This document shows positions 37,101-40,100 of a DNA stretch of 64,000 nucleotides, one piece after another. The position numbers and the translations under genes are program-made. Numbering within the stretch: the first letter of the stretch is position 1; every line of letters begins with the position of its first letter. Source of the DNA: Eledone cirrhosa (taxonomy: Eukaryota); contig OZ024747.1 in assembly GCA_964016885.1 (NCBI GenBank), positions 6,758,001 to 6,822,000 on the forward strand, written 5' to 3'. The notes under the pieces were generated by a model. That model was not told where the DNA came from. It saw only the letters and a list, made by a program, of their open reading frames with translations, and did not search any database.

Positions 37101-40100
37101 TAATACATATCAACATTTTCTTTCCATCGCACATGTTATTAAACCCTTAAATATTATTCTTAATACATATTAACATTTTCTTTTCATCGCACATATTATT
37201 AAACCCCTCAATATACAAACCTTAACTTTACATTATTTTTCTCTTCGTTAATTTTCAAATTCTTTTAATTTATACATTATCTTCCAACGGTTTTCAACCT
37301 CTCTATGTAAAACAATATATCTTTCTCAGTTATAAAAGCTATCTCTCTCTCTCTATCACCCATCTCTCCTCCTATCTCATCCTTCCTCATTATACTCCTC
37401 CCTCTCCACTTTTTACTCTCATCTCCTCCTCTTTTTCAACCTTTCCACCCCCCCCCCCCTCAAAATAAAATATTTTTCCCAATATCACACATCAATCTAA
37501 AACTACTTCTCATATGTTGATTTAAAACTGAACTATCCACAAGTGTTTTTTAACCTTCATATCATGTCTTCCTGTTTTATCTGATGAAAACACAAATATT
37601 ATTGCATGATGATATTTGTTTTTGAAATGCGCATAATAAAATACATGGAACTCTTTTAACCATCTTTTGTTCTTATATATATATATATATATATATATAT
37701 ATATATATATATAAATATAAATTACCGAGAATCGTATTTCAGCTCAGGAATTAACGAAAAACAACTTCCGAGATGTGTGGCAAGCGCTCGATGATTCAGA
37801 TGAATCAGAGCTACAACATACGTTAAAGGCCAAACACACTGAGACGATGGTTAAACAAACATCCACACAGCCAAAGAAACGACCAAGTAATTCGGGTCAA
37901 AGAATAAAAATATATGTGATTGAAAATTTACCCGGACCCCTGGAAGGTTGGTAAAATCCAATATTTGGGTTTTTGCAACTCCTAAATCAAGTACTGTCCA
38001 CTTACATAAAAAATGTTAGGCTTCTGGTAAGATGATTGAACAAGGAAGCCACTTTATCAACAGGTTTTTGTTCAATTGCTAAATCAAAGTGTGACTATTA
38101 CTGACCCCACGTGGAGTTCAGCAAGGGAGGCAACACTTATTTTAGGCGAATGAATTCAGTTGTGTATAATATTGCAAGAATGCAAAACATCACAAATCGA
38201 ATAAAGCTCTTGACAGAATGGTTAAAGTTAACAAGCTATTCATCAGTCAATAGAATCAACTAAAAAAATCAAGAAAATTAACTGCTCAATAGCTAGACTC
38301 TGGAGATTTATACAAATATAAATTAGCGAGAATCGTATTTCGGCTTAGGAATTAACGAAAAACAACTTCCGAGATGTGTGGCAAGCGCTCGATGATTCAG
38401 ATGAATCAGAGCTACAACATAATATATAATATATATATATTATATATATTATATATATATATATATATATTATATATATATATATATATTATATATATAT
38501 ATATTATATATATATTATATATATATATATATATTATATATATATATATATTATATATATATATATATTATATATATATATATATTATATATATATATAT
38601 ATATATATATATATATTATATATATATATTGTATATAATATATAAGAACAAAAGATGGTTAAAGGAGTTCCATGTATTTTATTATGCGCATTTCAAAAAC
38701 AAATATCATCATGCAATAATATTTGTGTTTTCATCAGATAAAACAGGACATGATATGAAGGCTAAAAAACACTTGTGGATAGTTCAGTTTTAAATCAACT
38801 TAAAACTGAATCAGTTTTAAATCAACTTAAAACTGAATCAGTTTTAAAACTGAACTATCCACAAGTGTTTTTTAGCCTTCATATCATGTCCTCCTGTTTT
38901 ATCTGATGAAAACACAAATATTATTGCATGATGATATTTGTTTTTGAAATGCGCATAATAAAATACATGGAACTCCTTTAACCATCTTTTGTTCTTATAT
39001 ATTATGTATACTCCAGTCCCACAAACTGTAGAGTGCTTCTTATCCGATATCTGCATTGCTTTATTGTACTACAATAAAACTCACCTCCTACATTATATAT
39101 TATATATATATATATATTATATATATATATATATATTATATATATATATATATTATATATATATATATATTATATATATATATTATATATATATATATAT
39201 TATATATATATATTATATATATATATATATTATATATATATATTATATATATATATTATATATATATATATTATATATATATATATATTATATATATAGT
39301 AGAATAATCGAGTATCGAAAAATCGGCGCACGAGTTCACGATAAACAAAATTCGAAATGAGCGGCAGAGGGCTCAATAATTCAGATAAATCAGAGCTATA
39401 ACTATCGTTAAAATACCGTCACACATAGAACAGGTCTATAATCAACCATATGACCGAAAAATTGCGATCTGGAAGATTCGGGACACTCAGATCAAATATC
39501 AATAAATCAATAAATCAAATGAATGTAAAAAGCATACCCGGACCCGCTAGAAAGATGGTAAATCTAGCTTCTTGGGTTTCTGTAAATCCTTAAACTGCCC
39601 TCTATCAGCTCACATAAAAATATATAAGACTTCTAGGAGCCAGCAGACCGGAATTTACTTCCTCAACAAGCCTTTGTCCGAACGAATGAAAAGGCATAAC
39701 CCAGGCTGAAAAAGCACATGGAATTCAGCAAGGGAGATAACCTCTATATCCGCAAAAAATATTCGGGAAAATGTGGAAATACACATATCGAATAAGAGTG
39801 CTCAATAGACATGTTAAAATAAACAGGAGCTATTCATCATTTAATAGAATCGACAAAAAATGAACAATAAAATTAACTGGTCAATAGCTAAGTCTAGAGC
39901 TAAATATAGTAGAATAATCGAGTATCGAAAAATCGGCGCACGAGTTCACGATAAACAAAATTCGAAATGAGCGGCAGAGGGCTCAATAATTCAGATAAAT
40001 CAGAGCTATAACTATCGTTAAAATACCATATATATATATTATATATATTATATATATTATATATATTATATATATATATTATATATATATATATATTATA

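Follow-up and report, generated by a model that had tools for sequence, protein, structure and literature searches.

Animal non-LTR retrozymes are non-coding repeats built of head-to-tail units, each with one type I hammerhead ribozyme. They range from monomers to long arrays, have no LTR and lie beside Penelope-like elements (PMC7229834; 10.64898/2026.07.22.740005; here and below, published work is cited for the parts of each source that were available). In 21 of 57 retrozyme families a relation to a Penelope pLTR was described (Li et al., 10.64898/2026.07.22.740005). The movement of animal retrozymes has so far been proposed and not demonstrated, and in vivo cutting by Penelope-type hammerheads is debated. 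Published traits of the latter are a U3-A8 pair and an extra base between positions 9 and 10.1 (PMC4209133). In vitro, a Penelope protein initiates internally, downstream of the hammerhead (PMC11167929). Similar pseudo-LTR structures, once read as non-autonomous LTR elements, are found in Chlamys elements such as MRC1, which form multicopy head-to-tail insertions at microsatellite targets (PMC8557442). TRIMs and plant LTR retrozymes are likewise short and non-coding, with an apparent terminal repeat.

The family described here resembles all of these systems in part. It shares with animal non-LTR retrozymes the non-coding head-to-tail units, the single type I hammerhead, the range from monomers to long arrays, the lack of LTR structure and the Penelope-like neighbors. 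Its unit of 600-622 bp is longer than the 150-450 bp given in PMC7229834 and falls within the 51-972 bp given in 10.64898/2026.07.22.740005. It differs from the animal retrozymes, as far as these sources describe them, in having a single mapped start, a peak of stops at the predicted cut and no homology to a pLTR in the loci sampled. Like Penelope-like elements (PMC4209133; PMC8557442; PMC11167929), it has the U3-A8 pair, the extra base after A9, 5' truncation, partial tandems, a (TA)n target and an internal start downstream of the hammerhead; unlike them, it has no ORF, one start instead of two, and no inverted arm or optional tail. Canonical hammerheads are missing from most MRC1-type elements, whose 3' end matches that of an autonomous partner, according to the available text of PMC8557442, whereas here there is a hammerhead and no partner was found. 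The repeated part is not of fixed length, TG...CA ends are missing and the hammerhead is of type I and not III, which separates the family from TRIMs and plant LTR retrozymes. Judged by its sequence, it would belong with the animal non-LTR retrozymes, and the variant hammerhead, the single mapped start and the stop peak would be its new features. We propose, with a probability of about 0.7, that it is a non-coding retrozyme with a long-armed minus-strand hammerhead, copied into (TA)n from one fixed internal start by a borrowed, probably Penelope-type, reverse transcriptase.

The window, that is, the whole stretch of 64,000 nucleotides from Eledone cirrhosa that was analyzed, hosts two such elements. 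Element A (37713..38421, minus strand) is composed of 1.18 head-to-tail units of 601 bp and represents subfamily A; element B (39297..40027, minus strand) is composed of 1.20 units of 610 bp and represents subfamily B. The two can be aligned end to end, and the consensus sequences of their subfamilies share 66% identity. We recovered both elements where the initial annotation had placed them and with the same periods, and also confirmed that their repeated ends are 96% and 99% alike, that (TA)n lies on both sides of each, that they have blocks in common and that neither contains an ORF longer than approximately 80 aa. The fixed end of A lies at approximately 37709-37717, next to a (TA)n target at 37674..37712, and its variable end at 38421, with the minus strand as RNA sense; in B, the fixed end adjoins a (TA)n-type target at 39094..39296. 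The terminal redundancy of 108-121 bp had been interpreted as a fixed terminal repeat. It is instead the start of a second head-to-tail unit (38314..38421 in A and 39907..40027 in B, both on the minus strand), and among the 60 loci with the best matches the redundancy measures anything from less than 40 bp to more than three extra units. The description as a copy of about 1.2-fold is true of A and B, but these are one point in a range of insertion lengths from 0.07 to 18.7 units. A coding remnant, which we also looked for, was rejected in that the copies share no common frame.

The family is an abundant, young, non-coding mobile repeat. DNA searches of the animal assembly (3.0 Gb) with A and B returned 4,865 and 2,366 first-look candidates, respectively, of which 40 each were scored. 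Exact patterns joining the element start to (TA)5 identified 2,326, 1,314 and 235 insertions, and their reversed controls identified none. There are thus at least 3,875 insertion starts, all these counts being lower bounds. A 23-nt motif has 3,171 exact matches in the genome, as compared to none for its reversed control, which confirms that the shared motifs exceed chance. The genome-wide check of copy number that had been suggested returned abundant further copies with TA targets and one conserved end. Full units form eight clusters, so that there are at least eight subfamilies, with 63-85% identity between them; 14 more divergent hammerhead loci are further subfamilies of the same non-coding element. 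In the literature searched we found neither a description of this family nor a report of stops peaking at a retrozyme cut; a repeat library may still hold an entry for it. When compared with the available part of the supplement of PMC8557442, the shared blocks had no hits beyond chance, and they had no match in that of PMC13282606, which is a supplement without library sequences. In metagenomes, a profile search found nothing related among 78 pattern hits. DNA similar to subfamily C occurs in six sequencing runs (X2-X7) from three studies under three organism labels, with shares of 0.58-0.77 and unstated library type, and the family may therefore be common to related species.

To describe the geometry of insertion, we relied on two sets of copies. 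In the first, which was not selected for TA, 94 of 96 chains begin at one common end, and (TA)3 occurs within 12 nt of this fixed end in 92 of the 94. The start position shifts by 0-10 nt and falls at ATA matches, a pattern that priming would produce and an exact nick would not. The second set is composed of 210 insertions chosen by their start pattern, in listed order (90 + 30 + 90), eight of which ran past the fetched DNA. Of these, 141 are shorter than one unit, 54 measure one to two units and 15 are longer. Such copies fit reverse transcription with one fixed start and a variable stop. The same geometry corresponds to target-primed reverse transcription with the plus strand as cDNA, in which case the RNA would be the minus strand. 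The insertions also display a fixed 3' end, 5' truncation, partial tandems and a microsatellite target, which are features of the Penelope type. The inverted truncated arm with optional tail (second start site) that is typical of Penelope was not found: it is absent from 209 of the 210 insertions, the one inverted neighbor belonging to another subfamily, and an inverted arm occurs in one of the 96 chains (L025). Elsewhere in the genome, two starts of subfamily A are oriented toward each other at a distance of 1.46 kb (G000:C1:156877929 and 156879388) and may represent a rare two-armed insertion.

Folding of the alignment favors the minus strand (-133 kcal/mol, as compared to -92 kcal/mol for the plus strand), and so do the counts of G-U and A-C pairs (181 and 27 on the minus strand, 64 and 35 on the plus strand). 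The plus strand as RNA was rejected overall on these grounds, with one hairpin position (a G-T pair) in its favor. The minus strand of A forms a three-way junction with a long hairpin (38190..38313) directly 3' of the putative start of reverse transcription, and the corresponding junction and hairpin of B (39785..39906, minus strand) adjoin the unit junction. We infer that this structure is a candidate binding site for the enzyme. Its position is similar to that proposed for the binding motif of an anole Penelope element, 3' of the internal start (PMC11167929). The CTGATGA at 38240-38246, which had been suspected to be a hammerhead core, sits inside a helix of the three-way junction, in a hairpin, and is replaced by AUGAUGA, GUGAUGA or CUGAUUA in sister subfamilies. 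Being paired and not conserved, it is not a hammerhead core. The idea of an RNA-structure constraint, instead, gains from strong covariation in both the three-way junction and the hammerhead fold.

The retrozyme hypothesis of the initial annotation is supported, albeit at another place, as a full hammerhead arrangement exists approximately 190 nt from the proposed site. Read along the minus strand, it opens with stem I (5 bp), followed by (U/C)UGANRA and one additional base. Next come a stem II arm of 75-79 nt that is closed by a G-C pair, an extra A and GAAAC, and then a stem III of 4 bp, which has an inner hairpin, and GUC. The U3-A8 pair, the long stem II arm, this form of stem III and the extra A are differences from the animal retrozymes as described in the sources cited above. 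In A, the type I hammerhead covers 37930..38065 (minus strand), with the 5' strand of stem I at 38065-38061 and the core UUGAUAA at 38060-38054, followed by the long stem II, the GAAA box, stem III and GUC, and with the predicted cut between 37935 and 37934. Since its GAAA box reads AAAA (37973), with loss of G12, this hammerhead is predicted to be inactive. The type I hammerhead of B (39536..39671, minus strand; predicted cut between 39541 and 39540) has an intact GAAA box and the core UUGAGGA at 39666-39660, with a U3-G8 wobble. Downstream of the cut, a conserved CCCGAA (37891..37897 in A, minus strand) is predicted to be able to pair with the CGGG left by cleavage, in competition with stem I.

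Conservation of the hammerhead extends over the whole family. In 19 sequences, 92.7% of the cells of its stems are paired, as compared to 29-44% in slid controls, and double changes amount to 45, as compared to 14.7 in shuffles. Because the structure was picked from the same sequences and the shuffle test ignores kinship, these figures are to be read as support and not as a P-value. Of 143 loci, 135 retain the invariant core letters, and the 3-8 pair is U-A in 83 of the 143, U-G in 46 and C-A in 14; the full pattern occurs in 8 of 15 further divergent loci, and GAAAC...GUC half-motifs number 5,317 genome-wide (control, 0). A canonical hammerhead was not found: the core is not of the C3-G8 type, and Rfam searches gave no match to a ribozyme family at E up to 5 and 10. 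Since Rfam misses long-armed U3-A8 hammerheads, there may be retrozymes among the repeats labeled 'unknown' or satellite. In none of the circles of the eight subfamilies is stem I predicted to form (probability 0.00-0.10), and folds of single sequences are no better than those of shuffled sequences. Overall, each unit appears to host a type I hammerhead of an atypical variant, with predicted activity. Another repeat (L014, L022, L058, L103, L121 and L149) carries a hammerhead of like construction, in which one base is added after A9 and an A before GAAA and stem II measures 48-50 nt, but whose core reads CUGAUGA or UUGAUGA.

The ends of the copies cluster at the predicted cut. Within the 21 nt that precede it, 44 of 167 first passes stop, where 4.1 are expected from the background rate, and so do 10 of 52 later passes (2.0 expected). 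Altogether, 54 ends fall in this bin, as compared to 14 in the next-best bin, and first-pass stops in the flanking windows are 0.6-1.6 times the expectation. The peak is detectable in each separately drawn set (16 of 78, 6 of 24 and 7 of 25 stops, the last set being the first 30 of a group of 90 insertions), with possible segmental duplicates (L343/L344 and L356/L357) kept in the counts. The 21-nt window is less AT-rich than several others, and TA microhomology alone is therefore insufficient to produce the peak. In RNA-seq data of the anole element, the available text of PMC11167929 reports no reads ending at the cut, whereas here genomic copies stop there. Genomic copies alone thus map the copying start and the predicted cut to a few bases. 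That about a quarter of them stop at the cut gives a test of cleavage, circularization and partner enzyme with a very young subfamily.

In the cycle that we propose, copies with two hammerheads (at least two complete ones are present in 22 of the 210 insertions) would be transcribed and would self-cleave into monomers, some of which would be ligated into circles. A nick in (TA)n would then prime cDNA synthesis on a short U/A stretch located 205-254 nt downstream of the cut (approximately 85-92 nt in the anole element; PMC11167929) and just 5' of the junction structure. On cleaved linear RNA the enzyme would run off on reaching the cut, and trimming of the final 3-19 nt to a TA match would then yield a class of 0.35-0.39 units; on a circle or an uncut multimer it would pass the site and produce longer arrays, up to 11.5 kb. 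Since only 205-254 nt separate the start from the 5' end of a self-cleaved monomer, copies of 0.35-0.39 units are expected of linear cleaved RNA, and longer ones need a circle or an uncut multimer. A and B, which have one hammerhead each, cannot release a monomer and are likely dead ends. More tentatively, at slightly less than even odds, the genome may record the whole retrozyme cycle. Thousands of cut-ending copies would be run-off products of self-cleaved linear RNA and the identical arrays of 8-11 kb would be rolling-circle products of the ligated circle, through a one-start, one-arm route that depends on an enzyme not yet tied to retrozymes and on a hammerhead type missed by standard searches.

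The longest arrays bear on the putative circle. Those of subfamily C (615 bp) reach 13.5, approximately 16 and 18.7 units. Five arrays of 7-19 units, lying at separate loci, have identical consensus sequences. Two of the five show no differences among their 12-13 units and the other three show one to seven in all, a homogeneity that could be inflated by assembly polishing. The start is visible in four arrays and coincides with the fixed end in each of them, and those far ends that can be seen are mid-unit. These observations argue against a cycle with no circle, in which linear, partly cleaved multimeric transcripts serve as templates and long arrays form through DNA recombination; linear copying, moreover, can only shorten arrays, and circles have been shown for other animal retrozymes (PMC7229834). 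In favor of such a linear cycle, later passes that stop at the cut need a cleaved 5' end together with an uncut inner hammerhead. Editing marks repeated in phase in every unit, which would prove a circle, were not found in the arrays, where the private changes shared within arrays are only 26 in total (T>C 3, as compared to A>G 5). We regard this alternative, which is compatible with our main reading, as somewhat unlikely.

The second question concerns the enzyme. Next to A lies a neighbor that is not part of the element (36260..37673, plus strand), namely the 3' end of a young Hydra-like Penelope element with a GIY-YIG remnant, the 3' UTR and a minimal hammerhead with CUGAUGA at 37581. A short piece of this Penelope-like end, two-armed (inverted), lies between A and B (38645..39092). 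In the window, this Penelope family has left two-armed pieces in (TA)n, one end being short and the other long, at 36114-36201, 38645-39092 and 36260-37673. The observation that Penelope fragments adjoin A and B was therefore correct, but they are not general companions, as just 7 of the 210 loci include the end of the flanking family. The young Hydra-like family has 59,421 first-look candidates, with 96-100% protein identity in the 150 scored. Elsewhere the flanking element has an intact ORF of 821 aa, in which the RWT and DKT motifs are present and for which Pfam gave no hit. This agrees with the description of the Hydra clade in the available part of PMC8557442. We found no homology between this family and our element in 20 loci, the (TA)n target being what they have in common. 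Neither was homology found to 50 GIY-YIG loci (30 + 20, the inspected ones being of the Neptune type), which contain two independent insertions of the element only, or to fragments of other Hydra-like families. The published octopus Naiad motif has no match in the genome at one mismatch.

The proposal of a non-autonomous retroelement mobilized by Penelope thus holds for the non-autonomous retroelement. With no homologous parent in the sampled loci and one-armed insertions, we infer the identity of the enzyme, which is fairly probably of the Penelope type. Alternatively, the mobilizer could be a microsatellite-targeting LINE (R4/Dong, Hero, Tx1 or RTE), a variant of our main reading that concerns the enzyme only. 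The single arm and start, the priming by microhomology and the duplications at the ends all resemble ordinary target-primed reverse transcription, no Penelope parent was found in the sampled loci, and in O. vulgaris no recently active LINE is more numerous than Dong-R4 (PMC13282606, available part). Initiation, however, is internal and not at the 3' tail of the RNA, the hammerhead type is Penelope-like and (TA)n is a listed target of octopus Naiad and Hydra elements (supplement of PMC8557442, available part), so that we consider a LINE unlikely.

Several other repeats were detected in the same searches. At least four Neptune-type families, with ORFs of up to 938 and 1,096 aa, are present among loci L186-L205, and one of them combines a compact hammerhead with two distinct 3' ends. 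A fold-back piece of the window (40845-41135) has a hammerhead-like motif, UUGAAAA...GAAAC...GUA, that recurs at the Neptune locus L186. The window also hosts an uninterrupted ORF of 1,024 aa encoding an endonuclease and a reverse transcriptase (31437-34511, minus strand), which from its motifs we take to be RTE-like, and a 416-aa fragment of a sister family (42476-43726, minus strand). Weak tRNA-like matches below the gathering score, at 40264-40321 and 44943-45000, are probably SINE heads.

Retaining the retrozyme reading, we consider that the stop peak likely records reverse transcriptase running off self-cleaved RNA. Its rival is a structural stall: the element would be the same retroelement, but with a weak or vestigial ribozyme, and the enzyme would stall at the GC-rich stem I / stem III. 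In vitro, one of nine Xenopus retrozymes cleaved (10.64898/2026.07.22.740005) and insertion needed no cleavage (PMC11167929), both according to the available parts of these sources. A stall is also possible because nearly all stops lie 3-19 nt short of the cut, just before a GC-rich stretch and many of them right before CCCG. Moreover, stem I is not predicted to be stable, the cores are non-canonical and an extra A precedes GAAA. Against it, the single-stranded catalytic letters (UGA, A9, GAAA and UC) are fixed across subfamilies that are 63-85% identical, longer helices elsewhere in the unit show no comparable peak, and one copy of subfamily C ends precisely at the predicted cut. Stops also tend to be fewer with a mismatched core. 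In subfamily E, which has a C3-A8 mismatch and still shows stops, they are 2 of 19, as compared to 25 of 55, by consensus position (P-value = 0.006), but this difference weakened to 4 of 21, as compared to 25 of 56, once positions were anchored on sequence (P-value = 0.06). Short duplications of the last bases accompany 6 of the 54 ends in the cut window and 2 of the 148 other ends. On balance, we judge a stall to be quite unlikely.

Helitrons and other HUH elements are characterized by an exact nick site and by 5' TC and 3' CTRR ends. A rolling-circle DNA transposon with a fixed origin (Helitron- or Replitron-like) or a TRIM with short LTRs, suggested by the fixed end, the tandem arrays and the hairpin just before the unit junction with its plus-strand G-T pair, is largely refuted and most improbable, since the start varies by 0-10 nt and the other end is free, there are neither TC...CTRR nor TG...CA ends, the length of the repeated part is not fixed, the G-U-rich covariation favors a minus-strand RNA and the conserved hammerhead predicts the stop peak.

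A last observation concerns an element of approximately 190 bp, two-armed and with a GAAAC...GUC hairpin, that was found at L118:1720-1915 and also in L200, L010, L020, L029, L045 and L048. In L118 it is joined, without TA, to the copy of subfamily C whose end coincides with the predicted cut, a single junction that is possibly the result of a template jump.
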